From assembly GCA_026395175.1 (NCBI GenBank), contig JAPLZF010000009.1, positions 82,083-146,082 of the forward strand: a DNA stretch of 64,000 bases. Direction: 5' to 3'. Origin of the DNA: Candidatus Staskawiczbacteria bacterium. Its GTDB lineage: Bacteria; Patescibacteriota; Minisyncoccia; Minisyncoccales; Staskawiczbacteraceae. The notes beneath the pieces are model-generated. The model made no database searches, had not been told where the DNA came from, and worked only from the letters and a program-made list of their open reading frames with translations. This document shows positions 87 through 63,662 of this stretch, one piece after another (the stretch's first letter is position 1; each line of letters starts with the position of its first letter). Both the position numbers and the translations under genes were made by a program.

Positions 87-416
87 AGCTGTATATTATT
101 CGGCATCTTTATGCCTTAACGTTTTACACCAAGTAATCTTTATTTTTAGCAAATCAGGAGCGACTCTCACAAAAGCCTTGACCATTGTGACTCTGCGCTT
201 TCCTGAAATTCAGAATTCGGCAGCCTGAAGCCGTAACCGCAGACATATTCGCCTACTATCCTAAACATATTCTATCATATTGAAATAAAAAAAGAACCCC
301 TCGATACAAGTTGCAAACTTTGCAAAATGCGCCGAGAGGCCTGTGTCGCCAAGGGTTCAAGAAACCATGTGTCCGATGAAGGACAAGGGTTCCAAGTGCC
401 CAGAGGCAACTTGAGA

Positions 417-1055
417 TTACTTGCGGGGACGGCGGAAGACGAGCTGAGCGCCTGGACTCCAGAGATAGCCGGGATTAGCATAGTCGCTGCCGAGATACAC
501 GCCATCGCCCCCGTGCTCTACGCTGAACACGAGCAGGTCGCCGTACGAATCGAGAATGGGTTCAGAGCAAATTCTGAGCCATTCACCTTTGGGCTGATCC
601 TTGTACTGCCGACGCAGTTGCGGTCCGTCTTCCGTTCCGCACAACTCCAGTCCGAACCCGAGGGCTCGCTCGTAAATCCTGTCACGGCGAGTGGCTTCCG
701 TGAAGCCGAGTTCTGCGACGCTGGTTCGGACCAGGTCAACTTCCATTTCCGTGGCCGAGACGACGAAAGCATCCTTGTTAAGCATGTCGTCAGCCCAGTC
801 GCTGATATTCATACCGGCCTTCTTCATGGCTTCGCGGAAACCGTTGGCGTCCTTGAACCCGACACCGAGCTTGATGGTCCGCCAAACGGGAAACTCCCGT
901 GGCTCAATGAACATTCCTTCAACTGCCCGCTGGAGAAACTTATTCAGTCCCTCCGGATCATACGGATAGCCTCCGGGTTGCCTCATCTGCCGCTTGATCT
1001 CCGCTAACTTCCCATCAACATTGAAATACTGATCGCCAGTGAGTACAATACCCAT
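417..1055 (-). CDS. Hypothetical protein, member 1 of a GC-rich paralogous family (about 212 aa), C-terminal motif LLVFSVEHGGDGVYLGSDYANPGYLWSPGAQLV
   Basis: Long minus ORF in a visibly GC-rich segment. The internal ATG at 1055 is preceded by AAAGGAG-N7; the ORF-track start at 1121 lies inside the leader hairpin and is probably spurious. The antisense ORF 327-1007 has a low-complexity R/L/P composition. Confidence 0.55.
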   Translation of the reverse strand: MGIVLTGDQYFNVDGKLAEIKRQMRQPGGYPYDPEGLNKFLQRAVEGMFIEPREFPVWRTIKLGVGFKDANGFREAMKKAGMNISDWADDMLNKDAFVVSATEMEVDLVRTSVAELGFTEATRRDRIYERALGFGLELCGTEDGPQLRRQYKDQPKGEWLRICSEPILDSYGDLLVFSVEHGGDGVYLGSDYANPGYLWSPGAQLVFRRPRK

Positions 1056-1245
1056 GACAATCTCCTTTCTATTTTGCCCGCCGTTAGGACAGGCTGTTTG
1101 ACTGCCACTATTAGCAGTCATAGCCAGAAAACACCGAATAACATCAGTATCTTTTGGCTACGACTGCTAGTTTCGCAAGTATTTGATTATAAATGTACAA
1201 TCTTTACCAATTATTAATTATACACCCATAATGAGTCTTTGTCAA
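1056..1245 (-). promoter_or_regulatory. Conserved promoter-leader cassette L1: sigma70-like TTGACA (1240-1245, rc), 17 nt spacer, TATAAT (1217-1222, rc), then a roughly 130 nt 5' UTR with a long hairpin at 1113-1168
   Basis: The -35, 17 nt spacer and -10 are all consensus. The 14-bp stem agcagtcatagcca / tggctacgactgct can extend to about 20 bp. The same element recurs at 18945-19146 and 60205-60345. Confidence 0.6.
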
Positions 1246-2025: not shown

Positions 2026-4194
2026 TTAAATCTTTTCTGCCATTATTGGGTTAACTTGCTCGTCAACAATTTCTAAAGTTGCAGCTATTGTTTCCATTGG
2101 AAAAGCAAACTCTTTTCTTTGCTGGTATTCTTCTTGTTTACCTTTATGCCATTGTTGAACTGGCCTAATATAGCCCACAACCCTTGAATAAACTTCACAT
2201 GGCTGTTTTATGGTGCATTGCGGGCATTCAAAGTGTTCGCCGGAAATATAACCGTGCGTTGGACAAATTGAAAATGTCGGGGTTAAAGTAATATACGGCA
2301 GGCTGTAATTTTCAAATATTTTTTTGACTAAATTTTTTGCCTGGTTGGGGTCTGAAATATTTTCTCCCAAAAATATGTGCAAAACTGTTCCGCCGGTGTA
2401 TTTTGTCTGAATGTCATTTTGCAAATCCAAAGCTTGGAAAACGTCATCTGTAAATCCAACCGGCAACTGGCTTGAATTGGTGTAAAAAGGAACTTCTTTT
2501 GTGCCGGCTGTAATAATATCTGGGTATTTTTCTCTGTCGGTTTTTGCCTGCCTGTAGCTTGTGCCTTCTGCCGGAGTAGCTTCCAAATTATACAAGTTTC
2601 CTGTTTCTTCTTGAAATTTAATCATGGTATCTCTCATAAAATCCAAAATTTCAATTGCAAATTTTCTTCCCTTTGGAGTTGTAATGTCTTCTTCCAAAAA
2701 GTTAAGCAAAGATTCATTCATTCCGCAAATTCCAATTGTTGAAAAATGATTTCCAAAATAAGTATTTCTCATTTTTTTCATATCTTCCAAATAATGCCTT
2801 GAATACGGGTAAAGCCCTTTTTCCATAAAGTTGTCCAAAGCTTTTCTCTTAATTTCCAAGCTTTCTTTTGCCAATTCCATTAAATGAGCCAGCCTGGCAA
2901 AAAATTCTGTTTTTGTTTTTGATGTATATCCAATTCTCGGCAAGTTGATTGTTACCACTCCAATGCTTCCTGTTTTTGGCGAAGAACCAAACAACCCGCC
3001 TCCTCTTTTGTATAATTCCCTATTGTCCAGGCGCAACCTGCAACACATACTTCTTGCATCATCCGGGCTCATGTCTGAATTAACAAAGTTTGAAAAATAA
3101 TTGATTCCATATTTTGCCGTAGCCTCCCACATTGCTGTCAAATTCGGATTGTCCCATTCAAAATCTTTTCCAACAGAAACCGTCGGAATTGGAAAAGTAA
3201 ACGGCCTTCCCGATGCGTCGCCTTCCATTAAACCCTCGTAAAAAGCTTTTATAAACATATCCATTTCCGGCTGAAATTCCCCATAAGTTTCATTTTGCGC
3301 CTCGCCCCCAATAATTACCGGCTGTTTTGCCAAGTGCGAAGGCGGTTTAATGTCCAAAGAAACATTTATAAACGGAGTTTGGAAGCCAACTCTTGTAGGC
3401 ACCATGCAATTGTACAAAAATTCCTGCATCGACTGCTTTACCTGCTTGTAATTTAAATTATCATATCTGATAAACGGAGCCAGCAAAGTGTCAAAATTTG
3501 AAATGGCGTTTGCCCCTGCTGTTTCGCCCTGCAAAGTAAACAGCGCGTTTACCAATTGCCCCAGCGCAGTTCTAAAATGTTTTGGAGGCCTGCATTCTAT
3601 TTTTCCATAAACCCCGCCAAATCCTTTCACCAAAAAATCATACAAATCCCAACCGGCGCAATAAGGAGCCAGCAATTCCAAATTGTGAATGTGAAAATCT
3701 TCGTTGGCTGCAGCCTCGCGAATTTCTTTTGGATAAATTTTATTCAGCCAATATTTTTTTGAAATATACGAGCCGACATATTGGTTTAACCCCTGCAAAG
3801 AAAAAGTCATATTGGCATTTTCTTTTACCTGCCAATCAATTTCTTTTAAGTAGCTGTCAATTTTTTCTGAAGATTCGTCAACCGCTTGTGACGCTTCCCT
3901 AATTGTTCTTCTTTGCTCTCTGTATAAAATATATGCCTTGGCTGTTTCAACCAAATCTTCCAGCATCAGAGCCTCTTCAACAATATCCTGAATTTGCTCA
4001 ATTGTCGGAATTTCACTTTTTTTGAACCTGCGATTGAGCAAGCTCAAAACTTTTTCTGAAACTCTTTTTGAAACTTCCCCGTCTCCCTGGTTTGCGGCAA
4101 CAACAGCTTTGTGAACTGCTTCTTCAATTTTTTTTATTTCAAAATCAACGACTCTTCCGTCTCTCTTCCTAATTTTTTCTATATTATTTTCCAT
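2026..4194 (-). CDS. nrdD: Anaerobic ribonucleoside-triphosphate reductase (class III)
   Basis: N-terminal ATP cone, C-terminal glycyl-radical region RVVGY, and a Cys-rich zinc ribbon CPQC. Confidence 0.9.
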   Translation of the reverse strand: MENNIEKIRKRDGRVVDFEIKKIEEAVHKAVVAANQGDGEVSKRVSEKVLSLLNRRFKKSEIPTIEQIQDIVEEALMLEDLVETAKAYILYREQRRTIREASQAVDESSEKIDSYLKEIDWQVKENANMTFSLQGLNQYVGSYISKKYWLNKIYPKEIREAAANEDFHIHNLELLAPYCAGWDLYDFLVKGFGGVYGKIECRPPKHFRTALGQLVNALFTLQGETAGANAISNFDTLLAPFIRYDNLNYKQVKQSMQEFLYNCMVPTRVGFQTPFINVSLDIKPPSHLAKQPVIIGGEAQNETYGEFQPEMDMFIKAFYEGLMEGDASGRPFTFPIPTVSVGKDFEWDNPNLTAMWEATAKYGINYFSNFVNSDMSPDDARSMCCRLRLDNRELYKRGGGLFGSSPKTGSIGVVTINLPRIGYTSKTKTEFFARLAHLMELAKESLEIKRKALDNFMEKGLYPYSRHYLEDMKKMRNTYFGNHFSTIGICGMNESLLNFLEEDITTPKGRKFAIEILDFMRDTMIKFQEETGNLYNLEATPAEGTSYRQAKTDREKYPDIITAGTKEVPFYTNSSQLPVGFTDDVFQALDLQNDIQTKYTGGTVLHIFLGENISDPNQAKNLVKKIFENYSLPYITLTPTFSICPTHGYISGEHFECPQCTIKQPCEVYSRVVGYIRPVQQWHKGKQEEYQQRKEFAFPMETIAATLEIVDEQVNPIMAEKI

Positions 4195-6995: not shown

Positions 6996-7829
6996 TTACC
7001 CTTGCAAAACTTCGGCCATTGTAAAGATGTCTTTTTCAACTTTGTGTCTGGCGAGAAACCGAATCGCCCGCAACACGCCGTCCACATAGACGTTTCTGCC
7101 CAACACATTGTATGTGAATTGCAGTTTCACGGTGCCGTCCGGAGACATCATTGTGTAGGTATGATACGCGTGGCCACCAATATATTTCTTTGGAACGCCA
7201 AGCTTCACTTCTTGGACCACAGGGTCTCGCACCATGTTGTCTGCAATCTGTTCTTTTGTGTACGGCATTCCAAGCGCCGCGAAGAATTCCAGCAGGCTCA
7301 CCGCCGTCCCACTGGGGTCTTTTTTCCCAGCCTGGTGGCTTTCTTCAATGAGCAACTGCCAGCCTTCAAGCACATTCGGAAAATTCTTGGCAGCGTATTC
7401 CAACATCGCCTGAAACATCACAACTGGCGAGGCCATATTTGGAGCAATAACAGCCGAGACACAGGACTTCTTAACCGTTTCCTCCAGCTTTTGTCTGTCT
7501 CCGCCGGTTGTCCCCATAACAAAGGGAACTCCCGCTTGGCAATACAGCTCGGCATTGCGGTTGACCGCTTTCGGTTGTGTGAAATCAACAACCATGTCAA
7601 TATCTTTACGACTCCGTAAGAAGTCTGTATGTTCATCGGTTGGAATCAAACGCACTGCTTCCGGCGACCTCTCATCTGCGATGAGCGTAACTCCTTTCTC
7701 TTCGGAAAGCGCATAAGGATACAACTCCATGTCTTCCTGAGACACAATGGCTTCCGCGACAAGCCTGGCCATTTTCCCCATTTCTTGTTGTGCTGACAAT
7801 CCTGCTACCATCGCCATAATCTTTTTCAT
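6996..7829 (-). CDS. dapB: Dihydrodipicolinate reductase (DapB)-like oxidoreductase, visibly GC-richer than its neighbours
   Basis: ESHQAGKKDPSGTA matches the DapB E-HH-K-D-PSGTA signature. Its own promoter TTGACA-16-TAGTAT lies about 100 nt upstream. Confidence 0.6.
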   Translation of the reverse strand: MKKIMAMVAGLSAQQEMGKMARLVAEAIVSQEDMELYPYALSEEKGVTLIADERSPEAVRLIPTDEHTDFLRSRKDIDMVVDFTQPKAVNRNAELYCQAGVPFVMGTTGGDRQKLEETVKKSCVSAVIAPNMASPVVMFQAMLEYAAKNFPNVLEGWQLLIEESHQAGKKDPSGTAVSLLEFFAALGMPYTKEQIADNMVRDPVVQEVKLGVPKKYIGGHAYHTYTMMSPDGTVKLQFTYNVLGRNVYVDGVLRAIRFLARHKVEKDIFTMAEVLQG

Positions 7830-9129: not shown

Positions 9130-10191
9130 TTATTTAAATAAAACTTTAAAATTATTGGTGCTCGCCTCCTCTTTTAATAATTCTATGATTTCTTTCTGTG
9201 ATTTTGTCATATTACTTTCATCAAATTTTGATCCAATGGTAAGTTTCAAAGCTGAAATTGAGTTATATTTTTTATCTTTAAATTTCACATCTTCAAGGTT
9301 GGTGAATAAAATCATTTTTAACAAACCATCTTTGATATCCTCTATGGATGGTAATGTGCCATCTTTGCTATGTTTCCCCTCTACTAAAAATAATTTATCA
9401 TCCTTAATCTTCGCTTCATCAACAGTGAAAAAATAATATCCACCTAAATAATTTTTTATAGTAATTATTGCTTTTTCCCCAGATAAGTTTTCTTTTGGTT
9501 GTATGATTAAACGCTCTCGCCCTTGGGCTTTTTTTGCCAACATCCGAGATAATTCCATAAAATTATTTTTACCTTTTAAAAGTTCGTTTATTCTTTTTTC
9601 GGCAGTTTGACGTGAGTGCATTTCTATTTTTAATTTTTTAGAAATTCCAGCATAGGATTCCAATGCCTTTTTTCCGATTTGCCCAATTTTGTCGATATGA
9701 GCAAGATTCCAGTGTAGAGCATCTGATTGATAAGATAAAATATTTTCAAGCTGTGTTTTAATATAGTCAATATCGAAACGTTGATTTGTAATTTTTTGCT
9801 TATATCTTTTACTCTTTTCTGCTGTATTATAATAAGCGATGATTACATAAATTCCCAATAAACTCATCAGTGAAATTGTATCCCATTGTAAAAAATCTCT
9901 ATCGCCTTCCAGCCCCTCGTCTTTAAAAACAGGTATAACCGTAATTTTTTTCCCAGAAAACCCTAAAGTATCATAGACTCTCGCGTAAGGATAGGAACGG
10001 GTTCGTTTTGCTGAAACCCACCAGCTCATCGCAACTTGATTCTCTTTATCAATTTTTAAAATAAAAGAAGAAAAAGAGGACATTCCTTTTCGTAAATCTT
10101 TTAAATCTAAAATCTCTAACTTACGGCAAAGTAGTGGCTTATATTTTATTCCTTTAATTTTAGCTAATATATCCATATTTGTCTGCTTCAC
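9130..10191 (-). CDS. Candidate Type II restriction endonuclease with a C-terminal PD-(D/E)xK-like motif TVDE...LVEGK
   Basis: Overlaps the downstream end of the adjacent DNA MTase gene. The D...ExK spacing is consistent with the nuclease fold. Confidence 0.5.
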   Translation of the reverse strand: MKQTNMDILAKIKGIKYKPLLCRKLEILDLKDLRKGMSSFSSFILKIDKENQVAMSWWVSAKRTRSYPYARVYDTLGFSGKKITVIPVFKDEGLEGDRDFLQWDTISLMSLLGIYVIIAYYNTAEKSKRYKQKITNQRFDIDYIKTQLENILSYQSDALHWNLAHIDKIGQIGKKALESYAGISKKLKIEMHSRQTAEKRINELLKGKNNFMELSRMLAKKAQGRERLIIQPKENLSGEKAIITIKNYLGGYYFFTVDEAKIKDDKLFLVEGKHSKDGTLPSIEDIKDGLLKMILFTNLEDVKFKDKKYNSISALKLTIGSKFDESNMTKSQKEIIELLKEEASTNNFKVLFK

Positions 10192-11266
10192 GATAAATAA
10201 TTTCTAATTTGTCGTTTTGGTTAGCAAAAAAAGTTTTTTGTGCATCACCAAAACCCAATTTTGTTTTTATGGTTGAAACGAGTGACTTTTTTATTTCAAA
10301 ACCAATACTATTTCTTCCTAATTCGCGAGCTTTTTTCATCGTCGTACCGCTACCAGCGAAAGGATCTAACACTGTTTCGTTTTTGTAAGAAAAAAGTTTA
10401 ATCGCACGATAAGGTAATTCTTCGGGAAAAGCCGCAATATCTTTTTCCAATGATGAACCAGGCATTACATTGTTCATTTCCCAAAGAGTCATATACCATC
10501 TATTTTTTTGAATCTCTTTCGTGTCCACTTTTGATTTTTCTCGGACATCTTTAGATATTGAACGATAATCAAATCTACCTTTTTGAAAAATTACTATACT
10601 TTCCAATAAATTGTCAGGATAAAAATACATAGGATAAGGATTCTGTAAAATAACTCCACTCCGACGACTAATTCTTAAATAACCATCGGGTTTCTTCCAG
10701 ACGATTTTATCTCTATATCTAAAACCTGCTTGTTGAAAAATTTTAACCGCGTCAGCGGCGATAGGATATTTCTCGCCATCAATCAACATATCATCAATAT
10801 TCAAAACGGCGATTCTCCCATCTTGTAAGACTCTATATGTTTCTTCGGCAAAACTTTTCAGCACTCCTAGATATTGTTCATAACTCTTAAATAAGCCCTT
10901 ATAATCAAAGGGAGCATTAAAATAAGGCGGCGAGGTTATCATTAGGTGAACACTACCATCTGGTATTTCTGCCATACTCATACAGTTGCCTACTATTAAT
11001 TTGTGGTTTGTTGCGGTAACATCGGGTTGTGTATGTTTTTTGGTTTCAACTAGTTCTTCCAAAACCGCATCTTTCACTCCTTGATTTTTAGATAGTTTGC
11101 TTTTAATTATTTCTTTCTGGATTTCATATAAAGCTTTTTTTGATTTTTTCCTTGGCCATTTTTTGGCTATAATTCCGTGTTTTGTTTTGCTAAGACTAAC
11201 AACCCCACGAAGTTTTTCTTTTGCCAATCTTAAAGCTTTTTTATTTTTAACTTTTACTTTTGCCAT
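10160..11266 (-). CDS. DNA methyltransferase, beta-class N6-adenine/N4-cytosine (motif IV SPPY before motif I DPFAGSGTT)
   Basis: The SPPY and FxGxG motifs occur in the order typical of PF01555-type MTases. Confidence 0.8.
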   Translation of the reverse strand: MAKVKVKNKKALRLAKEKLRGVVSLSKTKHGIIAKKWPRKKSKKALYEIQKEIIKSKLSKNQGVKDAVLEELVETKKHTQPDVTATNHKLIVGNCMSMAEIPDGSVHLMITSPPYFNAPFDYKGLFKSYEQYLGVLKSFAEETYRVLQDGRIAVLNIDDMLIDGEKYPIAADAVKIFQQAGFRYRDKIVWKKPDGYLRISRRSGVILQNPYPMYFYPDNLLESIVIFQKGRFDYRSISKDVREKSKVDTKEIQKNRWYMTLWEMNNVMPGSSLEKDIAAFPEELPYRAIKLFSYKNETVLDPFAGSGTTMKKARELGRNSIGFEIKKSLVSTIKTKLGFGDAQKTFFANQNDKLEIIYREADKYGYIS

Positions 11267-16564: not shown

Positions 16565-16598
16565 AAAAAGTCGGGCTCCAGCATGTGCTAGAGCCCCT
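16565..16598 (-). terminator. Intrinsic terminator (GGGCTC-loop-GAGCCC then a T-run on the minus strand)
   Basis: Hairpin plus TTTTTTT seen in the minus-sense sequence. Confidence 0.5.
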
Positions 16599-16627
16599 CA
16601 AACTTGAAACAGGTACAACAAATGCAA

Positions 16628-16897
16628 CTACCGCCGCAAGCGCAGGGACTGCTTCCTGCACTTGGGCTTATGATGCCCATTGCCATTGCCGTTTTTGCCG
16701 TTGCCGGGGGATTGATCCCTAAAAACCTGCAGGAGCAACTTCCGCATTCCCTTCCGTCCGATGTGTTCCCCGCCATAGCGAGCGTTGAAGATTCTCGCCA
16801 GTTTTGCGATGGCGTCAGAATGCGCATTCGGGGGAACTTGAAATTTCCGTAGAAACCGTACTTGGTCCTCTGGCAACTGCATTGTCGCGTTAAGCAT
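16628..16897 (-). CDS. Hypothetical small basic protein in a GC-rich island (MLNATMQLPEDQVRFLRKF...); gene model uncertain
   Basis: This frame stops about 30 nt before the terminator. The alternative overlapping frame 16588-16968 is Cys-rich and stops inside the terminator hairpin. Confidence 0.3.
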   Translation of the reverse strand: MLNATMQLPEDQVRFLRKFQVPPNAHSDAIAKLARIFNARYGGEHIGRKGMRKLLLQVFRDQSPGNGKNGNGNGHHKPKCRKQSLRLRR

Positions 16898-17061
16898 ACT
16901 CTTTTCCCTCTTCGTTTTTGTTGTGTTTTCCCTGTTTCTACAAACAAAATTGGAAATGAGCTGACCATTCAACCGCCTTTCTCTCGGTTCTTGAATGGGT
17001 TGTTGACAACTAATATCATAGCTCTTTCATAAATTGATGTCAAATGCTATAATTACAAAAT

Positions 17062-17841: not shown

Positions 17842-17949
17842 TTAGCTGGAGATCACCTGGTTGCCGGCATTCCATTCGTTCGGATTCTCAACAGAGTTGG
17901 CGTTCACGTTCCAATAGCGATTGTCAGAGTTCCAGTTCGCGTTCACAGC
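17842..17949 (-). pseudogene. 3' fragment paralogous to the C-terminus of gene 18282-18944 (AVNANWNSDNRYWNVNANSVENPNEWNAGNQVISS*)
   Basis: About 85% DNA identity to 18295-18405. An in-frame TAA lies immediately upstream, so only about 35 codons are intact. Confidence 0.5.
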
Positions 17950-18281
17950 CCAGACCGATTATATGCAACACGCCATCACAACCACTGTCCTTTGAATACT
18001 CTTGGGACTGTATCTTATTTGGGACATAAAAGTCCTCCAGCGCGCTACACCGATTCTTTTCTTTTTTAGAAACTTGCATAATGACGCTTGTTGAAGACTT
18101 GTCCGCAACAATTCTGCAATATACAATTTCAAGGCGCTACGCAAAAGCCTTAACCTCCACGTTCAGCTATCCTTAGATTTATTTTACATTTTTTTGTGAA
18201 AATAAAAAGACTCTCCTTTACTTTTCAAAGTTTCAGAGAGCCATAGATTCTGAGAGTCCAAAGTCCCGAAGGGCTTTAGAG

Positions 18282-18944
18282 TCAAGAATCGCAAGAGAGG
18301 ACCTGGCTGCCAGCAAACCACACGTCCGGATTCTCAACAGAGTAGGCGTGCACGCTCCAATAGCGATTGACAGAGTTCCAGTTCGCGATCACAGCCCAGA
18401 CATTGCCGTCTTTTCCTGAGATATGCATGACGTTCGCACGCCCATTAACGAGCAATTTGCCCTCTTCTCCATGTGCCTGTTTTTTAATCAGGCAAAATAG
18501 GTAAGCGAGGTAAGCTCTGGCAAGATCGCCTAACTCAGCGATGATTTGTGGGTCTTTGGAGTCCAACTCCAACCGATGAATCGCGAGCGTGGCGTCAGGA
18601 ACGTTTTCTTCCACAAGATTGAGGAATTGTTCCTTGAAGACGTCGTTAGTCCAACCGACGTTAGCTTCTGCGAGATGGTCTTTGGCGATAAACTTCTTCG
18701 CGCCATCGACCGACGCCGTCGCAATCTTCATGAGAATACCGCCAACACGCCCACCTTTGGCCAGAAACTGAAGGAAACGTCCAAAGAAATCATCCTGGCT
18801 GTCGTTCACGATTTGTTGAGCAGTGGCACAGGATACGTCCCAATCCATCTTCCCTGTTACCACCTCAACACTCATCTTGATGAATGCCTTGAAAAGCATC
18901 ATCAAAATTTCTCCCAATTGCTCAACACTCATCCTGTCCTTCAT
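18282..18944 (-). CDS. Hypothetical protein, member 2 of the GC-rich paralogous family (C-terminal ...NRYWSVHAYSVENPDVWFAGSQVL)
   Basis: GC-rich ORF with the conserved promoter-leader upstream. Its C-terminal motif NP..W..G.QVL and internal AELG segment are shared with gene 417-1055. Start uncertain (MKDR or MSVEQ); the track start uses TTG. Confidence 0.55.
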   Translation of the reverse strand: MKDRMSVEQLGEILMMLFKAFIKMSVEVVTGKMDWDVSCATAQQIVNDSQDDFFGRFLQFLAKGGRVGGILMKIATASVDGAKKFIAKDHLAEANVGWTNDVFKEQFLNLVEENVPDATLAIHRLELDSKDPQIIAELGDLARAYLAYLFCLIKKQAHGEEGKLLVNGRANVMHISGKDGNVWAVIANWNSVNRYWSVHAYSVENPDVWFAGSQVLSCDS

Positions 18945-19146
18945 TGTATGAACCTTTTTTGCGGCTACTGTTGCTCTCGCCACAAGGCAGAGCAAGCTCA
19001 ACGCATACTGTGGCAACCCTTTGCCACACCAGAAAATTATCTGTTTCTCAAATCTCTTTCTGGCATGGCAAAAACAAGTATTTTTAAATTATAAATGTGC
19101 CAATTTACTATTTATTAATTATACACCCTCTATCAATTATTGTCAA
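18945..19146 (-). promoter_or_regulatory. Conserved promoter-leader cassette L3: perfect TTGACA (19141-19146, rc), 17 nt, TATAAT (19118-19123, rc), plus the leader hairpin (about 19021-19073)
   Basis: caagtatttttaaattataaatgtgccaatttactatttattaattatacaccc aligns to 1170-1235. The hairpin sequence differs from L1 but pairing is preserved. Confidence 0.6.
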
Positions 19147-25025: not shown

Positions 25026-25109
25026 GCCGAGGTGGTGAAATTGGCAAACACGCCGGACTCAAAATCCGGTGCCCTTAAAAGCTTGAGGGTTCAAGTCCCT
25101 CCCTCGGCA
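25026..25109 (+). tRNA. tRNA-Leu (anticodon CAA), long variable arm, CCA not encoded
   Basis: Acceptor stem GCCGAGG/CCTCGGC, anticodon loop CTCAAAA, T arm GAGGGTTCAAGTCCCTC. Confidence 0.8.
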
Positions 25110-25137
25110 CACTTCACTTTGTTCAGTGTGAACAACT

Positions 25138-31413: not shown

Positions 31414-33864
31414 TCAAATAACTATATTAATTAATTTGTTTTGCACGTAAATTGTTTTTACAGATTTTTTATCGCCAATTAAGGCTTTTATTTTTTCAGA
31501 TTTCAAAACTAATTTTTCTGCATCTTTTTGTGCAATGCCGGCTTTAGCTTCAATCTTATCTCTTACCTTGCCGTTTACCTGCACAATCAAAAGCACATTT
31601 TCTTCTTCAATTAATTTTTCATCATATTTTGGCCATTTTTGTTCACAACACATTTCTTTAAATCCCATTCCGCTCCAAATTTCTTCTGCCAAATGCGGAG
31701 CAAAAGGAGATAAAATTTTCAAAAAGTCTGCCAAACCTTTCTTGTCCAGCCCTTCCTCTGAAACTTGCCATGCGTTCACAAATTCCATCATAGAGCTTAC
31801 AGCTGTGTTAAACTTCATCAGCTCAATATCTCCAGAAACTTTTTTAATTGTTTTATGTAAAATCTTTTCCAAGCTCTCACTGGTTTTAACAGCAACTTTT
31901 TTGCCGGCCAGGTTATAAATTTTTTCAACAAATCTGCGCGAGCCCACAACTCCTTTTGTATCCCAAGGAATCATTTGCTCAAAAGGCCCCATAAACATTT
32001 CATAAATGCGCAAAGTGTCGGCTCCCCATTGCTTTACAATTGTATCCGGGTTTATAACATTTCCCTTAGATTTTGACATCTTAATTCCGCCCTCGCCCAA
32101 AACCATTCCATGTGAAGTGCGTTTTTTATAAGGCTCTGGCCCCACAATTGTGGGAACGGCTTTAATATCCCACAAAAATTTAAAAATAAATCTTGAATAT
32201 AATAAGTGCAAAGTTGTGTGCTCCATTCCGCCATTATACCAATCAACCGGCATCCAATATTTTGTTATCGCGCCATCTGCCAATTCCTTGTTATTTTTTG
32301 GGTCTAAATATCTTAAATAATACCAATTACTGCCTGCCCAATTTGGCATTGTGTCTGTTTCTCGTTTGGCTTGGCCTTTGCATTTTTCGCATTTTACATT
32401 TACCCATTTATCAATTAAAGCTAAGGGCGACTCTCCTGTGTCTGTTGGCTTATATTTTTTTACATTTGGCAATTCAATTGGCAAATCTTTTTCAGCAACT
32501 GCCTGCCACCCGCATTTCTTGCAAAAAATCATTGGAATTGGCTCGCCCCAATAATGCTGTCGTGAAAATACCCAGTCACGCAATTTATAACTTACTTTTG
32601 GTTGGGCTAAACCCTTACCAGCCAGCCACATAATTATCTTTGGCCTGGCTTCTGCAGATTTTAAATCATCAAACTGCTGTGAATTATAAAGTGTTCCCTC
32701 TTCTTCAAAACATTCCTCTAAATTTTTAACTTTCTGCATTAATAATTCATCATCTGGCTTAATAGAAGTTCTCAAAGGTATGCCATATTTTTTTGCCATC
32801 TTAAAATCTCTTTTATCATGCGCATCGGCAAAAACAGCTCCCGTGCCATAATGCTCCAAAACAAAGTCAGCAGTCCACACCGGCATTTCTTCATTGGTTG
32901 CAGGGTTTCTTACCACAATTCCCTTCAACTGCACTCCTGTAATTTCTTTGTCCTGGTTGGTCCTGTCCATGTCAGAAACATTTTTTGCATCTTCCCTGTA
33001 TTTTAAAACTTCGTCAATGTTTTCAATTCTGCTTTTATATTTATCAATAAAATTATGACCTGGTGCCACAATTAAAAATGTTACGGAAAATATTGTGTCC
33101 ACTCTGGTTGTAAAAACATCAATATGTTCTTCAACTCCTTCAACAAAAAATTTAATCAAAGCTCCGTGGCTTTCCCCAATCCAATCTTTCTGCTGAGTTT
33201 TAATTTTTTCCAAATAATCTACATTATCCAAATCTTTAATCAGCCTGTCTGCATATTTTGTAATTTTTATCATCCATTGTTCTTTTTCTCTTTTTTCAAC
33301 TTTTGTTCCGCACCTTTCACATTTTCCATCAATGACTTCTTCGTTTGCCAAACCAATTTTATCTTTAGGACACCAATTAATATCAATTTTAGATTTATAA
33401 GCCAATCCATTATTAAACAGCTGAATAAAAATCCACTGCGTCCATTTATAATATTTGGGGTCTGTTGTGTTAATTTCACGGCTCCAGTCAAAAGACCAGC
33501 CCAAGCTTTTCATTTGCCTGCGGAATGTATCTGTATTCTTTTTTGTAACCACAGCCGGGTGTACTTTCTTTTTAATGGCATAGTTTTCTGTGGGCAAACC
33601 AAAAGCATCCCAGCCCATTGGGTACAAAACATTAAATCCCTGCATCCTGCGTTTCCTGGCAACCACATCTAAGGCAGTATAGCTTCTGCAATGGCCCACA
33701 TGAAGCCCAACTCCCGAAGGGTATGGAAACTCCACCAAAAGGTAGCATTTCTTCTTTTTAGAGCCATTTTTCGCCTTAAAAACACTTGATTTATACCAAG
33801 CATCCTGCCACTTCTGCTCTATTTTTTTAGGATTATATTTAATCATATTATTACATAATAACAC
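31414..33864 (-). CDS. leuS: Leucyl-tRNA synthetase
   Basis: HIGH (GLHVGH) and KMSKS motifs; editing and anticodon-binding domains. Confidence 0.9.
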   Translation of the reverse strand: MLLCNNMIKYNPKKIEQKWQDAWYKSSVFKAKNGSKKKKCYLLVEFPYPSGVGLHVGHCRSYTALDVVARKRRMQGFNVLYPMGWDAFGLPTENYAIKKKVHPAVVTKKNTDTFRRQMKSLGWSFDWSREINTTDPKYYKWTQWIFIQLFNNGLAYKSKIDINWCPKDKIGLANEEVIDGKCERCGTKVEKREKEQWMIKITKYADRLIKDLDNVDYLEKIKTQQKDWIGESHGALIKFFVEGVEEHIDVFTTRVDTIFSVTFLIVAPGHNFIDKYKSRIENIDEVLKYREDAKNVSDMDRTNQDKEITGVQLKGIVVRNPATNEEMPVWTADFVLEHYGTGAVFADAHDKRDFKMAKKYGIPLRTSIKPDDELLMQKVKNLEECFEEEGTLYNSQQFDDLKSAEARPKIIMWLAGKGLAQPKVSYKLRDWVFSRQHYWGEPIPMIFCKKCGWQAVAEKDLPIELPNVKKYKPTDTGESPLALIDKWVNVKCEKCKGQAKRETDTMPNWAGSNWYYLRYLDPKNNKELADGAITKYWMPVDWYNGGMEHTTLHLLYSRFIFKFLWDIKAVPTIVGPEPYKKRTSHGMVLGEGGIKMSKSKGNVINPDTIVKQWGADTLRIYEMFMGPFEQMIPWDTKGVVGSRRFVEKIYNLAGKKVAVKTSESLEKILHKTIKKVSGDIELMKFNTAVSSMMEFVNAWQVSEEGLDKKGLADFLKILSPFAPHLAEEIWSGMGFKEMCCEQKWPKYDEKLIEEENVLLIVQVNGKVRDKIEAKAGIAQKDAEKLVLKSEKIKALIGDKKSVKTIYVQNKLINIVI

Positions 33865-33886
33865 CGCTTTAACCTGTTTTAAAGTC

Positions 33887-33915
33887 TTGACATAATCAAC
33901 AAATATGATAATATT
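33887..33915 (+). promoter_or_regulatory. Sigma70-like promoter (TTGACA-17-AATATT) for the small GC-rich gene
   Basis: Consensus -35 with correct spacing, followed by AAGGGAGG-N7-ATG. Confidence 0.55.
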
Positions 33916-33943
33916 CAGTCAACACAACTAAGGGAGGTAACAC

Positions 33944-34153
33944 ATGAAAGCGAACGAAGCTGTTGACGCCTTGAAAAAAGGCACTGGACTGGTCGCTTTT
34001 CGACCAAGCTGGGAAAAGGGCGAGTATCTATTTGTTACGGGAGGAAACGGAAGTGCGTGGGACGTCCACGATACGTTCAAAAAACCTCGTACACAAAAGC
34101 AAATGCTCGCCGACGCAGAGGCCAATGACTGGAGGGTTCAACTACTTGTATAA
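33944..34153 (+). CDS. DUF2829-like small protein (Tad2-like fold family), GC-rich self-contained module
   Basis: EAVDALKKGTGLVAFRPSW...YLFV...SAW...MLADAEANDWRV fits the DUF2829 pattern; strong RBS. Confidence 0.55.
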   Translation: MKANEAVDALKKGTGLVAFRPSWEKGEYLFVTGGNGSAWDVHDTFKKPRTQKQMLADAEANDWRVQLLV

Positions 34154-34204
34154 TGGAGCCCCCTCCCAAACAGAACCGCCGAGGTTTCGACCCGGCGGTG
34201 AACA

Positions 34205-34237
34205 AAGCGCGAGACTTCGGTCCCGCGCTGTTTTATT
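34205..34237 (+). terminator. Intrinsic terminator (agcgcgagacttcggtcccgcgct then gttttattg)
   Basis: GC hairpin plus T-run, preceded by a second hairpin ccgccg...cggcgg. Confidence 0.6.
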
Positions 34238-34345
34238 GCACATTTAACTGCCATCACATTTCCAGCGATAGCATAAAATCTGACACCACCTATTTTACAT
34301 ACTTTTTAAAAATATTTCGGGTTAATGAGTATTAACCTGCGCGAA

Positions 34346-35182
34346 TTAAATATTAAATAATTTTTTAGCGTTTTGGGTGGTGGCATCTGCAACTTCGTCA
34401 AAACTCATGCCTCGTAAGTCTGCAATTTTCTGGATAACATGTTTTACAAAAATTGGCTCGTTTCTTTTTTCTCCAGCTTCAGGTGGAGCAAGGTAAGGAC
34501 AATCTGTTTCAGTTAAAAGTCGGTCCAAAGGAGCTTTTTTAATAACCTCATCAATATCAAATTTAAATATAATTCCATTGATACCAAGATAAAATCCCAA
34601 ATCCATATATTTTTGCGCCTGCTCCCAGCTTCCAGTAAAACAATGAATCACTCCGCGCAATTCGTTAACACTAGCAAGCCCTTTAAATCTACCCAAAATA
34701 TCAAGCACATCTTCGTGCGCCATTCTGCAATGAATAATAATAGGTAAATCTCGTTTAACTGCAAGATCAATCTGCTCAATAAAAACCTCTCTTTGCTTTT
34801 GCTTAAATTTTTCCTGCTTTGTAGCTCCTTTTGGTTTGTAATAATAATCCAAACCAATTTCTCCAATTGCCACAACTTTCGGCGATTTCAAAAGCTCTTT
34901 ATATTTTTGCCTATCAAATTCCTCGCCAAGCGGTTCAAATGCGCCCTCTTCCTCGTCCATTTTTAACTTCATCAAATCTGTTTTTATATGAATCGGATGC
35001 ATTCCAATTGCAGCATAAATTCCCTCATTCTTTTCAGCCAACTCAATTGCCAATTTTGAAGTTTCATATTTTGTTCCAACATCAATACAAACCACCCCCG
35101 CTTCTTTCGTGCGTTTTACAACCTCCTCCCTATCTGCATCATAGGCTTTAAAGCTTAAATGTGAGTGCGTATCAGTTATCAT
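34346..35182 (-). CDS. tatD: TatD-family metal-dependent hydrolase/DNase
   Basis: ITDTHSHL N-terminus; TIM-barrel metal ligands. Confidence 0.8.
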   Translation of the reverse strand: MITDTHSHLSFKAYDADREEVVKRTKEAGVVCIDVGTKYETSKLAIELAEKNEGIYAAIGMHPIHIKTDLMKLKMDEEEGAFEPLGEEFDRQKYKELLKSPKVVAIGEIGLDYYYKPKGATKQEKFKQKQREVFIEQIDLAVKRDLPIIIHCRMAHEDVLDILGRFKGLASVNELRGVIHCFTGSWEQAQKYMDLGFYLGINGIIFKFDIDEVIKKAPLDRLLTETDCPYLAPPEAGEKRNEPIFVKHVIQKIADLRGMSFDEVADATTQNAKKLFNI

Positions 35183-51034: not shown

Positions 51035-51481
51035 ATGAAGATATTCAGTGAAAACAAAAAGGCGGGGTTTAACTATGAAATCCTAGAGAAGTTTGAAGCC
51101 GGGATGGTTTTGTTTGGCCAGGAAGTTAAATCAATAAAAACCGGGCACATCAATTTGTCCGGGTCTTATGTTGTTTTTAACAGGTCAGAGCCCTATTTAA
51201 CCGGCGTAAAAGTGCCTCCATACCAGCCAAACAACATTGGAGCCGACTATAATGAAGAAAGGCAAAGAAAACTTCTTTTAAACAAAAAAGAGATAGATTA
51301 TTTGGCGGGCAAGACCAAAACCAAGGGTTTTAGCTTAATACCCTTGAAAATTTATGAGAACAATGGTAGAATAAAACTCGAATTCGGGTTAGCCCGCGGA
51401 AAGAAGAAATTCGACAAAAAGGAGAAAATTAAAAAACGGGATGTCGACCGAGAGGTTAATCGCGAATTATCACGGGGATGA
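51035..51481 (+). CDS. smpB: SsrA-binding protein
   Basis: GFNYEILEKFEAGMVL..EVKS SmpB signature. Confidence 0.85.
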   Translation: MKIFSENKKAGFNYEILEKFEAGMVLFGQEVKSIKTGHINLSGSYVVFNRSEPYLTGVKVPPYQPNNIGADYNEERQRKLLLNKKEIDYLAGKTKTKGFSLIPLKIYENNGRIKLEFGLARGKKKFDKKEKIKKRDVDREVNRELSRG

Positions 51482-51827
51482 TTGTTTCGATGACTAGTTC
51501 TTTAAAACAAGGCAAGTTAAGCTTTCTCAGGGCTTATAAATCTTCTGGGAAAAAACATAATTGCTACTAATTTATTTAATAGACAACCAGCATTAGCTTT
51601 CGCTTAATGCGGCATCTCAACCATTGACTCCTAATAAATGGACCTGAGGTGTTATATTATTAGGATAGGAATTCTGAGTCCTTGGCAGATTTCCAAAATA
51701 AAAAGGATAAGATGTTAAAAATTTTGCTATTTCTTTATTTGACATCCTAAAAAACAGAACTAGCTAAACTTGTAGAATTGCTTTAGAAAACTTTTCAGAC
51801 GCGATTTCAACATCGCCATCTCCACCA
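51474..51827 (+). ncRNA. ssrA: tmRNA (SsrA); its 5' GGGGATG pairs with 3' CATCTCC-A-CCA; predicted tag ATNLFNRQPALAFA
   Basis: tRNA-like 3' end GACGCGATTTCAACATCGCCATCTCCACCA and 5' GGGGATGATTGTTTCGATGAC resemble E. coli tmRNA; the candidate tag reading frame ends in TAA; sits downstream of smpB. Confidence 0.75.
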
Positions 51828-57623: not shown

Positions 57624-57877
57624 AAAATTTGCTGCAGAGCAACAAAAAACACCAGCTTTACAGCTGATGGACTTTGTTGGAGGGGGATAATAATTCCTAA
57701 CAAAAATGGATTATTTCTCGAGATAAATTCGGACAATGAATTTATGTATAATACTTATACCCTCTTCGTTAAAAACTATTATGTCCTTGAGGATAAACCT
57801 CGCACCCCCTCATAATAATTATTTTATTCTATTTTAAGCCGATGTCAAATTTTTATTCACTTTTTATCTGCAAGGGC

Positions 57878-57906
57878 TTGACACAATTTTTAGTTGGGAC
57901 TATGCT
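57878..57906 (+). promoter_or_regulatory. Sigma70-like promoter (TTGACA-17-TATGCT) driving a GC-rich orphan transcript
   Basis: Consensus -35, 17 nt spacer, near-consensus -10. Confidence 0.55.
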
Positions 57907-57912
57907 TAAATA

Positions 57913-58412
57913 ACCTAGTGTTCTTCGCGCTTCGCCACAGAAGAGGAAGTAGTACAATACACTACACACGACAAACAACACGATCAACCTGGCGAAAGGA
58001 GGGCCAATAAGCAAGACCCACGAACACTCTTCTGATGAAGAGGCCGAAGACACGATGAGGTGTAGTATAGCCACCATTGTTGTGGCACGCGACGAAGTCG
58101 GAAGACGACAAGGCAAGGAGAACTTCCATGATGCACCGGACAATGATGAAGCGAATCGTCGGCCTGACGATCGCAACGGCCGAAGTAGTGCGCGGTGTCG
58201 AGAGCAACATCGGCGTAACGGCCGGCTAGGTCCAAGTTGCTGTGACCTTGATGGTTGTGTGGCTGGGCTGCCCGCGGGCGAAATTGCTTGCTTCGGCGAG
58301 CGATATCCGGTGGGCAGCCCGCTCACAACAACAGTTCTTTGACATCAACCAGTCCTATCGCATGATAGGACATAACCCAGGAGCAACAACACACACGTTG
58401 CTCAATTTTTTT
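57913..58412 (+). ncRNA. Candidate structured ncRNA or small-ORF transcript (about 500 nt, GC-rich), delimited by a promoter and a rho-independent terminator; no convincing ORF
   Basis: All three minus frames are open (GC artefact). The plus ORFs are low-complexity. Strong internal hairpin gggctgcccgc...gggcagccc. Terminator gagcaac-loop-gttgctc then ttttttt. Confidence 0.4.
58381..58412 (+). terminator. Intrinsic terminator (gagcaacaacacacacgttgctcaattttttt)
   Basis: 7-bp stem plus T7. Confidence 0.65.
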
Positions 58413-59682: not shown

Positions 59683-60204
59683 TCAGTAAAAGTACAGCGT
59701 CACAGAATCTATCTCAATTCCGTAACCATCCCCTCCACTGATGACCAAATAGAGGATACGGTCATCACCACCGCTCTCGACATTGGCCGGGCCGATTTTG
59801 AGGCTTTCAGAAAAAACATTCCAGCCGTTGCCCCCGCTACCGGTACTGCCGGCTGTGAACGAGCCGATAAACTCGGCCCCGACGGCGAGCGTCACCCGTT
59901 CGGATATAGGACTGCCATTATCGTTCGAATACCTGACGCTAACCCACAACTTGGTGGCGCCCGGCGGGACGGAGAAATTCTTATCAATTGACTCGCCGGC
60001 ACGCAGGTGAACCGTCCAATCGTTCTGGGCGTTGCCCCGTTGCTGTTTATAACCGTCTCCTTCAAACTTCTCCGCCGGGATTTGTACCTGTTTGAGCAAG
60101 GGACCGCTTAATAACGGCTGAAGCAGAGAACAGCCCGTCATTACCGGCGCTGTTAACAGCAGCGCCATTGCCAACACCATAAACCACCACTTCGATTTCT
60201 TCAT
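59683..60204 (-). CDS. Lipoprotein, member 3 of the GC-rich paralogous family (C-terminal LYLVISGGDGYGIEIDSVTLY)
   Basis: Signal peptide with a lipobox (VMTGC); RBS AGGAGGG; the conserved leader lies upstream; GGDG C-terminal motif shared with gene 417-1055. Confidence 0.6.
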   Translation of the reverse strand: MKKSKWWFMVLAMALLLTAPVMTGCSLLQPLLSGPLLKQVQIPAEKFEGDGYKQQRGNAQNDWTVHLRAGESIDKNFSVPPGATKLWVSVRYSNDNGSPISERVTLAVGAEFIGSFTAGSTGSGGNGWNVFSESLKIGPANVESGGDDRILYLVISGGDGYGIEIDSVTLYFY

Positions 60205-61998: not shown

Positions 61999-62826
61999 CT
62001 AAAAATTTAATAACTTAATTTGCTGTTCCTCTAATCTTTTTCTATTTTTTACAAACTCTAATTTAAATTCTGTTTTAATTTCTCCATTATTTTCCAATCT
62101 ATCTAAAATCATTTTGTAATACTTCTGATGTATTTCGCAAGAAATAAAATTTCTTTTCAAATCCTTGCATTTTATAATCTCCGAACCGCTTCCACCAAAC
62201 AATACAAAAACATTGTCCCCCTCTTTTGTGCTTGCTTTTATTAGCATTTCAACTAATCCTAAAGGTATTTGACAGGAATGGAAAGTTTTATCTTTGGAAA
62301 CATTTTTAACTAAATCAAAATAAAACCAAGAATATGGCATTCTGCCCAAACTACCATTTTCGATTCTATTTTGAATCCTTCTGTCGTTTGGATTTTGGTA
62401 GGGCAATGCAATTTGATCCTTGTAAAAATTATTATTCTTTGTTTTAGTAGCATGTAAAATAATCCTATGAGCAGTGGTAAATTTTTTATCGCTATGACCA
62501 ATATTCGAATTATAGACCCAAACATAATCATTTACTGAAAAAGCATTGTCATCTAAAAATTTCACTCTTAAATAAGCGTTTTGTTTTGGATAATTCATCA
62601 TAAATAAATTCCCAGTTGGTTTTAATACCCTTATACATTCTTGTGTAAGTTTAATATACCAATCAATATACTTATTCCATTCAGCGGTAAATTTTTTGCC
62701 GGCATAATTTATGCCAACATTATAATCCGGGTCTCCATAAACCATATCAATAGAATTATCTGGCATTCTCTTCAAAACTTCTAAAATGTCCTCATTAAAA
62801 ATTTTATTTGTAAAACTATCTGTCAT
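61999..62826 (-). CDS. DNA methyltransferase, beta-class N6A/N4C (motif IV DPDY, then motif I FGGSGS)
   Basis: GDPDYN ... VLFGGSGSE in beta-class order. Confidence 0.75.
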   Translation of the reverse strand: MTDSFTNKIFNEDILEVLKRMPDNSIDMVYGDPDYNVGINYAGKKFTAEWNKYIDWYIKLTQECIRVLKPTGNLFMMNYPKQNAYLRVKFLDDNAFSVNDYVWVYNSNIGHSDKKFTTAHRIILHATKTKNNNFYKDQIALPYQNPNDRRIQNRIENGSLGRMPYSWFYFDLVKNVSKDKTFHSCQIPLGLVEMLIKASTKEGDNVFVLFGGSGSEIIKCKDLKRNFISCEIHQKYYKMILDRLENNGEIKTEFKLEFVKNRKRLEEQQIKLLNF

Positions 62827-63662
62827 TTTTTGTTTTGATTTATTAAGTTATACCTAACTGACTTTAAAAATTTAATTGAAGTTATATCTTTCGGATTAGC
62901 AAAAGTGTAAGCGTATAAATTAAGCGCATCAAATTCTTTTTGCTTTTCTCTAACCACATAAATACAAATAATTTCTTTTATTTTTGATTTTAATTCTGGT
63001 TTTTGCTTCGCTTGCCAATAATAAAGAAAGGGATGATAAATTTGGTATATCGAAAAATTAGTTGGCTTACCATTTTTTGCCTCAAAAATTCCTATTTTAC
63101 CGTTAAATTCAATGGTTAAATCAATCTCAATTTGGACCTTATTCAATTTTACCCCTATATTATTCCCAAAATTATATTCTAAATTAGCTTTTGTTCTGTG
63201 AGGAAAATATGTTTTGGGTCTGCTGTCAATGTCTGAATTATCAAACTCTTTATCCTGACCAAATAAAAAATGATGCAAAATTCTTTGGTTGTTCGCAACC
63301 GACAAAATATTTGATTCGCTAGTATTATATTGATTCAAAACTGACTTTCTATATTGCCAATCAATTACCTTTTCTATCGGCTCAAAATTATGATAAATCT
63401 TTTCTATATTTTTAATAAACTGATGTTTCCCGCTTCCTAAATGAATAAGGGCAAAATCTTCTTTTTGCAAAGCAACGGGCAATTTTTCTTTAGTATCCAA
63501 TTTCGTAGCATCAAAATGATTTTGGAAGCCAACTCTTTTAGAAACAGCTTTAACTAAATCGTTATTAAAAACAAAATTGTTTTTATCTTTGCAAATTTTA
63601 AAAATTACCGACAAAACTTTTTTCTTTCTATTCTCTCTTTTTAAAATCTTTTTAGCTTTCAC
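62823..63662 (-). CDS. Candidate Type II restriction endonuclease paired with the MTase
   Basis: 4-nt overlap with the MTase gene and a typical REase-MTase arrangement; no motif recognised. Confidence 0.45.
   Translation of the reverse strand: MKAKKILKRENRKKKVLSVIFKICKDKNNFVFNNDLVKAVSKRVGFQNHFDATKLDTKEKLPVALQKEDFALIHLGSGKHQFIKNIEKIYHNFEPIEKVIDWQYRKSVLNQYNTSESNILSVANNQRILHHFLFGQDKEFDNSDIDSRPKTYFPHRTKANLEYNFGNNIGVKLNKVQIEIDLTIEFNGKIGIFEAKNGKPTNFSIYQIYHPFLYYWQAKQKPELKSKIKEIICIYVVREKQKEFDALNLYAYTFANPKDITSIKFLKSVRYNLINQNKK

Follow-up and report, generated by a model that had tools for sequence, protein, structure and literature searches.

A divergent DUF2829 (Tad2-like) protein predicted in the variable tatD-leuS slot of a Candidatus Staskawiczbacteria genome

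DUF2829/Tad2 proteins have so far been described as weapons of phages and prophages that soak up the signals of Thoeris and of cyclic oligonucleotide-based antiphage signalling systems (CBASS). The pocket of SPO1 Tad2 (Gp34.65; PDB 8SME/8SMF/8SMG) for glycocyclic ADP-ribose (gcADPR) uses W25 and W73, and that of HgmTad2 is built of W21 and N22 in a G-W-N-G-K-G loop and of W87, L88, S90, T92 and D93 in a G-W-L-A-S-Q-T-D segment. The HgmTad2 mutants W21A/N22A and S90A/T92A/D93A are markedly reduced in 1''-2' gcADPR binding and in ThsA inhibition, and the gcADPR site is predicted to be missing from no more than about 1% of Tad2 homologues. HgmTad2 and SptTad2 bind cyclic dinucleotides (CDNs) via an insertion of 35-41 residues that forms the CDN pocket. 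In the searchable literature we found no paper linking Tad2 to Patescibacteria. Here we describe a 69-aa open reading frame (ORF; 33944..34153, + strand) in 64,000 nucleotides of a Candidatus Staskawiczbacteria genome (Patescibacteria/Candidate Phyla Radiation, CPR), a stretch referred to below as the window. The ORF product has the same sequence as NCBI 'hypothetical protein NTY81_00930', encoded on a 178,960-bp contig of a metagenome-assembled genome. The explanation that we favour, and hold to be probable, is that this ORF is a self-contained antisense accessory gene for a minimal, divergent DUF2829 protein, situated in a variable slot between tatD and leuS.

Comparison with the described systems reveals both shared motifs and replaced residues. 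The helix motif A-x-x-A-L-K-x-G, the R-x-x-W hairpin and the C-terminal D-x-x-A-x-D-W-x-V are common to the window protein, SPO1 Tad2 and ModTad2 (PDB 8V3E/9EIB), and all are products of small, stand-alone genes (69 aa versus 89 aa for SPO1 Tad2 and chains of 88-89 residues for ModTad2). Unlike these two, the window protein has its second ligand-stacking Trp and its Asn/Ser/Thr contacts replaced, falls below the Pfam cut-off and is not borne by a phage or prophage. HgmTad2/AcrIIA7 and SptTad2 (PDB 8KBI-8KBM, 8WJD) carry the same domain, whereas their CDN-pocket insertion is absent from the window protein. In minimal length and domain boundaries it resembles the short phage DUF2829 proteins of about 70 aa, which retain a P-Y-L-x-V...G-x-V-P-W hairpin with the second Trp that the window protein does not have. 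An example of the short phage form is a 70-aa gene on an IMG/VR viral contig (2789..3001, + strand; PF11195 46.7 bits over the whole 73-position model), which abuts, directly upstream, a canonical 85-aa Tad2-like gene (3001..3258, + strand), the two forming a tandem pair. The family is a known one that is widespread in phages and prophages; what is new is a CPR-chromosomal subgroup, the loss of the gcADPR site in four of its six members and the validation by positional homology.

Positional homologues and family assignment

A preliminary description of this DNA had placed the protein in the DUF2829 family on a motif pattern. Searching the 24,736 families of Pfam, we found PF11195 (Tad2-like, formerly DUF2829) to be the only match of the window protein, at 19.6 bits (E 0.0013), the gathering cut-off being 25 bits. 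The match spans residues 1-43 (model positions 1-40 of 73) and leaves the central third of the protein unaligned. The motif is present, with the columns A6, L10, K11, G13, R20, W23, D57, A60, D62, W63 and V65 aligned in order, covering the N-terminal A-x-x-A-L-K-x-G helix, the R-x-x-W hairpin and the C-terminal D-x-x-A-x-D-W-x-V, and it is weak when the window sequence is taken alone. The best BLASTP match to an AcrIIA7-like DUF2829 protein (P0114) had 34% identity over 56 alignment columns (E 3e-4). With a local hidden Markov model (HMM) of 204 Tad2-like sequences the window ORF was the top-scoring Patescibacteria ORF, yet at E 0.17, by two co-linear matches, one to residues 2-46 and the other of the C-terminal 'ADAEANDWRV' to 'tDvlaeDwei'. 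Searches of PHROGs, NCBIfam, PADLOC and, by sequence, PDB gave no match to the window protein; tblastn against 50,697 phage records (E <= 10) gave nothing relevant; a word-indexed search of 5.8 billion proteins returned the window protein itself only, and phmmer, run in full against 1.84 billion representatives, found it and two repetitive artefacts. Viral DUF2829 ORFs were enriched among weak phmmer matches; these are mutually homologous, amount to about one observation and were not counted as independent evidence. Scattered Tad2 entries in Foldseek at E 3-7 were likewise not taken as evidence. Judged from the window sequence alone, the assignment is a reasonable guess and no more.

The assignment was made firmer by positional homologues, which link the sub-threshold window protein to members above the cut-off. 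Loci of TatD relatives were taken from GTDB genomes and JGI metagenomes, the ORFs in their gaps were clustered and six-frame searches followed. A small ORF occupies the same place, downstream of tatD and antisense to it, in five other Staskawiczbacteria-like contigs (L145, L153, L224, L206 and L195); L153 alone extends to leuS on the far side, the other four contigs stopping short of it. Each of the five ORFs has PF11195 as its sole or best Pfam family: L195 (48.0 bits, E 1.8e-12) and L206 (30.1 bits, E 7.1e-7) exceed the cut-off, followed by L224 (protein P0125; 24.9 bits, E 2.9e-5), L153 (22.6 bits, E 1.6e-4, whole model) and L145 (17.5 bits, E 0.0061). The L153 ORF, found by clustering the ORFs of filled gaps, encodes a textbook short DUF2829 protein of 69 aa (MKLLKALERAKAENAGIRRKIWPNEDY...PDITAMDWEVV); its position and orientation are those of the window ORF, and it has a ribosome-binding site, a GC hairpin with a T-run and a promoter similar to that of the window (TTGACATA...TATGCTAATGT). 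The motif TTGACATA...TATG[AC]TAAT[AG]T recurs upstream of the L153 ORF, only its -10 part is found in L224, and a GC hairpin with a T-run follows every homologous slot ORF. Three of these ORFs are incomplete: L145 has its N-terminus cut by the contig end, L206 is also cut, and L195 is cut and has two domains in tandem. In the L195 protein (2183..2581, - strand) the first DUF2829 domain, cut by the contig end, closes with DICADDWEVL and the second is complete with the second Trp, the 48-bit match falling in two stretches.

The L145 protein serves as the link between the window protein and the other slot proteins; its contig belongs to one of the two nearest relatives (77-78% identity in TatD). 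The L145 protein is 35% identical to the window protein over 51 aa (E 3e-7, composition-corrected), the best identity of any slot homologue, and it matches L224 at E 7e-12 and L153 at E 4e-9; the L224 protein (73 aa) is in turn 79-80% identical to that of L153. When the five other slot proteins alone were used to build an HMM, the window being left out, a search of 23,451 six-frame segments recovered the window ORF at 19.0 bits (E 0.0014). The aligned part, residues 14-66, spans the R-x-x-W-E-x-x-x-Y-L-x-V hairpin and the D-x-x-A-x-D-W-x-V tail, and among the matches listed the remaining ones outside the training set were viral DUF2829 ORFs. Comparison of the six-member family with ten Tad2 proteins by hhalign gave a probability of 88% (E 3e-6), and the six-member profile, searched against 177,635 PDB sequences, retrieved Tad2/AcrIIA7 entries only, with ModTad2 as the best. 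An apparent absence of the whole beta-hairpin from the window protein proved to be an artefact of alignment to long Tad2 proteins, since the protein is full-length relative to the short CPR forms and those of Pfam length. Together, these comparisons indicate that the window ORF very likely encodes a divergent DUF2829-domain protein. The family named in the preliminary description was thus right; the Pfam search it had called for found PF11195 alone but below the cut-off, and it took positional homologues from related genomes to show the membership. More generally, sub-threshold domain matches in fast-evolving small proteins can be validated via positional homologues.

Gene anatomy and the tatD-leuS slot

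The gap of 481 bp between leuS (leucyl-tRNA synthetase; 31414..33864, - strand) and tatD (TatD-family hydrolase; 34346..35182, - strand) contains one ORF, on the opposite strand; it is divergent from leuS and convergent with tatD, which overlaps the end of metG. The promoter described earlier as consensus is a near-consensus, TG-extended sigma-70-type element (33887..33914, + strand) with TTGACA at 33887-33892, a 16-nt spacing and TAATAT at 33909-33914 (10 of 12 matches). Promoter-like sites number 7 in the 750-nt region versus 1.5 +/- 1.0 in shuffled sequences, and a promoter-like site lies on the - strand near leuS (33883..33855). As had been described, the ribosome-binding site read from the sequence is strong (AAGGGAGGT; 33930..33938, + strand), its GGAGG ending 6 nt before the ATG of the 69-aa coding sequence. 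With a promoter, a ribosome-binding site and a terminator of its own, the gene would form a self-contained transcription unit, and we regard it as almost certainly a real gene that is predicted to be expressed.

Downstream of the ORF are two GC-rich hairpins, each unique in the window, which had been taken for tandem terminators. Hairpin 1 (ACCGCCGAGG-TTTCG-ACCCGGCGGT; 34175..34199) has its T-rich tail (TCTGTTTGGG) on the - strand, and hairpin 2 (GCGCGAGAC-TTCG-GTCCCGCGC; 34207..34237, + strand) consists of a stem-loop at 34207-34228 with a CUUCGG loop followed by TGTTTTATT, the folding energy of the hairpins being -37.3 kcal/mol (z = -3.3). Folding identifies hairpin 2 as the putative intrinsic terminator of the small gene, and hairpin 1 is probably terminator-like on the - strand, where it would stop read-through from tatD. 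Because the + strand T-run is found at hairpin 2 only and the T-rich tail of hairpin 1 is on the - strand, the pair has the look of one terminator acting in both directions, placed between tatD and the small ORF that converges on it; the two hairpins of the earlier account are there, but two terminators for one gene are the less likely reading. The non-coding spacer that extends from there to the tatD stop (34238..34345, about 100 nt) is some 80% identical to its L224 equivalent (about 404-545) though the small proteins are barely alignable; L145 and L153 lack this spacer. Within it lie a conserved block, ATCACATTTCCAGCGATAGCATAAAATCTGACA (34253-34285), and a hairpin, GGTTAATGAGTATTAACC (34320-34337), that is probably the tatD terminator. 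Rfam gave no match to the spacer. Searched at E <= 1 over 33000-35000 and at the gathering score over the whole window, Rfam returned only the transfer-messenger RNA (tmRNA), one tRNA and a spurious miRNA match, and an RNA alternative for the locus was rejected as no Rfam family matched it.

The order metG-tatD-leuS is conserved in relatives, while the space between tatD and leuS varies. Among 98 loci in which tatD is followed by leuS, the gap is 200 bp or less in 48 (counted as an empty slot), 200-400 bp in 6, 400-1000 bp in 21 and more than 1 kb in 23. Filled slots hold ORFs with a response-regulator receiver (REC) domain, transmembrane, PaaX-like or other ORFs, often GC-richer. Carriers of the DUF2829 ORF are interspersed with non-carriers, and their nearest TatD relatives have slots that are empty (L148, 87% identical to L145, 72 bp; L152, 80% to L224, 37 bp; L160, 81% to L195, 78 bp) or differently filled (L202, 87% to L206, with a stand-alone receiver-domain gene instead). 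The tatD-leuS junction is therefore, with high probability, an accessory-gene hotspot that undergoes gain, loss and replacement and of which the small gene is a cargo. No TatD in the GTDB genomes and JGI metagenomes comes closer than 75-78% identity, so that the boundaries of the insertion are not definable against an empty site.

Three other cargoes recur in the slot. GC-rich antisense genes for stand-alone receiver domains (PF00072, 37.7 bits for L007) occupy the slot of L007, L017, L144, L146, L157 and L202 (in L202 at 3394..3819, - strand). A PaaX_M/Cas2-like protein of about 190 aa (PF20803, 70.9 bits) is encoded on the tatD strand in 9 loci, and a membrane-anchored family of 85-152 aa that matches no Pfam family is encoded on the opposite strand in 13 loci, often paired with the PaaX_M/Cas2-like protein. 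These last two cargoes are found in the gaps of L014, L018, L020, L024, L025, L057, L174 and others.

The preliminary description had further suggested that the gene was acquired from a phage. A horizontal origin at some point is plausible, because the gene is patchily distributed and about half of the relatives have an empty slot; in this general sense, with elevated GC as a further sign, acquisition is plausible, while a phage donor and a recent date are not supported. Housekeeping genes flank the ORF, members of the same family sit in the slot of five other lineages, and one pair of these has host-like GC and evolves under constraint. In this pair, L153 and L224, the ratio of nonsynonymous to synonymous substitution rates (dN/dS) of the small ORF is 0.14 (dS 0.89) against 0.12 for tatD, and the small proteins are 80% identical against 83% for tatD. 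Divergence in step with tatD and the low dN/dS indicate, as far as sequence comparison goes, that in this lineage at least the gene is functional and vertically transmitted. The window protein is far more divergent from L153 than the divergence of TatD predicts, and the GC of the slot ORFs is elevated in the window, L145 and L206 (0.50-0.53) and host-like in L153, L224 and L195 (0.39-0.42). The excess divergence and the elevated GC speak less for simple orthology than for a gene that arrived independently or more recently, or that took the place of one from another DUF2829 lineage. Six of 12 Logan contigs were compared with the window: five are 100% identical and the sixth (L001) has one mismatch in 2157 nt (99.95%), outside the small ORF, so that the absence of variation precluded a test of selection on the window gene itself.

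The GC-richness that had suggested a phage source is real without being singular. The ORF has 49% GC against 36.5% for the window (standard deviation of 250-nt windows, 6%), with a local peak of 54%, and its GC by codon position follows a coding-like pattern (GC1 0.60 > GC3 0.47 > GC2 0.40). Its GC3, compared with 0.338 +/- 0.091 for the genes of the window, is only about 1.5 standard deviations high. The window has at least six further GC-rich islands; the composition of the small ORF is accordingly suggestive, neither exceptional nor unique. In a genome of such mosaic composition, high GC by itself speaks only weakly for a phage origin.

Predicted ligand pocket and competing explanations

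By alignment, the window equivalents of HgmTad2 W21, N22, W87, S90, T92 and D93 are W23, E24, Q51, M54, A56 and D57. Two of the six gcADPR contacts are thus kept (W23 and D57), and the second ligand-packing Trp, W73 in SPO1 Tad2, is replaced. This Trp is lost in the window protein, L145, L153 and L224, whereas L195 and L206 keep W-x-P-S/T-x-E-D. The alignment also lacks the insertion of 35-41 residues between beta2 and beta5, for which a protein of 69 aa has no room; CDN binding in the insertion mode of HgmTad2 is therefore excluded on the predicted sequence. With other residues in place of the second ligand-stacking Trp and of the Asn, Ser and Thr contacts, the protein probably either has a ligand other than canonical 1''-3' gcADPR or binds only weakly; another nucleotide-derived molecule may be bound, or binding may have been lost. 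By analogy with other DUF2829 proteins, the product would probably be an oligomer of subunits in which an N-terminal helix packs against a small antiparallel sheet, and a small nucleotide-derived molecule would probably be held in a pocket with W23 of the beta1-beta2 loop and D57 of the C-terminal D-x-x-A-x-D-W. The low-confidence AlphaFold2 models have predicted elements in the order H-E-E-(H)-H-E, the family fold being an N-terminal helix followed by five antiparallel strands in a sheet. Action would be by sequestration, as a 'sponge' or buffer, and not by catalysis; we put such a sponge-type mechanism forward tentatively, as a possibility that falls somewhat short of probable.

The first alternative is that the protein is a canonical Tad2, a recently phage-derived anti-Thoeris sponge for 1''-3' gcADPR left behind by a phage or mobile element. 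DUF2829 homology, GC above that of the host, the patchy, hotspot-like distribution and the match of W23 and D57 to two ligand contacts would all agree with it, as would the second Trp and the S/T-x-E-D motif kept by L195 and L206 in the same slot. The pocket itself argues otherwise: four of the six contacts are replaced (N22 by E24, W87 by Q51, S90 by M54 and T92 by A56), HgmTad2 mutants at such sites are impaired, and homologues predicted to be without the gcADPR site make up only about 1% of the family. The genomic context does not speak for a phage either. The flanks of the gene (leuS, tatD, metG) contain no phage gene and no integrase, direct or inverted repeats bracketing the module were not found, and the tblastn search of the 50,697 phage records was empty. 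PADLOC, run on the 67 proteins of the 64-kb window, placed no Thoeris/Ths or CBASS family among its 25 best, a weak negative at this coverage; the 25 include methyltransferases, a TatD-like QatD match, DpdF-like matches and PDC. We therefore consider a canonical, recently phage-borne Tad2 unlikely, and with only two contacts kept and the second Trp replaced, the gcADPR sponge implied by the preliminary description is not borne out. A functional link to TatD through the PADLOC 'QatD' match was rejected, this tatD belonging to the conserved housekeeping pair metG-tatD. Methyltransferases are the only clear defence-type matches in the window among the 25 best: one for N6/N4 DNA methylation (62002..62826) adjoins a DUF6996/DUF6997 protein (62823..63662; - strand), possibly as a restriction-modification pair, and a second lies at 10160..11266 (- strand).

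A further alternative is a decaying or function-less remnant whose pocket has been lost, the module persisting because it is harmless or because its bidirectional terminators and divergent promoter insulate tatD from leuS. The protein is extremely divergent from all relatives, its central third is unaligned to the Pfam model and its structure predictions are of low confidence; across the six contigs of the strain the small ORF is invariant, leaving no differences from which selection could be read. Set against this are an intact ORF behind a strong ribosome-binding site and promoter, a length equal to that of the L153 protein (69 aa; 73 aa in P0125) with conserved N- and C-terminal motifs, and purifying selection on the homologous pair, which together make a remnant improbable. 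That the resemblance to DUF2829 arose by chance, in an unrelated small protein or in a non-coding GC-rich structured element, would agree with the sub-threshold Pfam score, the lack of any PHROGs, NCBIfam or PDB sequence match and the non-significant Foldseek result, but is hardly credible given that six independent ORFs in the same slot point to one of 24,736 Pfam families, that the leave-one-out profile recovers the window ORF, that the bridging L145 protein matches it at E 3e-7, that no Rfam family is found and that the codon-position GC is typical of coding sequence.

Several observations nevertheless weigh against the explanation that we favour, a self-contained gene for a divergent DUF2829 protein. 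The window protein does not reach the cut-off of PF11195, and it has no BLAST-detectable similarity to the L153 protein. Single-sequence hhalign against the ten Tad2 proteins gave a probability of 22% only. AlphaFold2 reached a predicted local distance difference test (pLDDT) score of 63 from the single sequence and 55 from a 26-row DUF2829 alignment, both of low confidence, and Foldseek found no significant match in PDB or BFVD. The slot proteins may be independent insertions and not orthologues, as L153 and L224 diverge no faster than tatD, and with two of six pocket contacts kept, binding may be lost entirely, or the role of the protein may be an unrelated one.

If a self-contained DUF2829 gene is indeed what the slot holds, the family reaches CPR chromosomes as a stand-alone, apparently selected, non-prophage gene in a conserved accessory slot, and the otherwise near-universal gcADPR site is lost in at least four of its six members, which makes them candidates for a new ligand specificity or role. 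Were the protein inactive or a plain Tad2, this would be an ordinary extension of the family. A bolder and rather unlikely extension is that purifying selection in Staskawiczbacteria maintains, for purposes of the cell, a Tad2-like protein whose gene is chromosomal rather than phage-borne and whose pocket has been remodelled, the slot being a dedicated landing site for exchangeable conflict genes. In that case a different, possibly unknown, nucleotide signal would be sequestered, buffering the cell's own immune signalling or blunting the immunity of the episymbiont's host cell, and the exchangeable conflict genes would be the Tad2-like proteins, the stand-alone receiver domains and the PaaX/Cas2-like proteins.

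Other features of the window

Housekeeping genes occur throughout the window, among them those for aminoacyl-tRNA synthetases, topoisomerase, FtsZ, SmpB and tmRNA, and several compositional outliers stand between them. A GC-rich ORF of 234 aa (417..1121, - strand; 55% GC, GC3 0.63) matches no Pfam or NCBIfam family, while L037 and L045, both Nealsonbacteria loci, carry homologues of it (44% and 32% identity); the long opposite-strand ORF at 327..1007 is probably its shadow. In two GC-rich stretches, 16588..16968 and 57853..58326 (50-58% GC), GC2 exceeds GC1 in the longest ORFs, whose translations are odd and rich in Cys, Ser and Arg and which are probably not the true coding frames; neither stretch matches an Rfam family at the gathering score. 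Another GC-rich ORF, of 244 aa (18282..19016, - strand), is without a Pfam match, and its C-terminal 37 residues are repeated at 70% identity in a fragment about 300 bp downstream on the coding strand (17845..17958, - strand), a duplication also carried by the homologue in L023. Further outliers are a DapB-like gene (6996..7829, - strand; GC3 0.55) and a lipoprotein-like ORF of 173 aa (59683..60204, - strand; GC3 0.63) with a signal peptide and Cys, a strong ribosome-binding site and no family match. The tmRNA (51474-51827, + strand; Rfam 95.8 bits) begins within the final bases of a 148-aa ORF (51035..51481), probably smpB; the single tRNA of the window is a tRNA-Leu(CAA) at 25026-25110 (+ strand).

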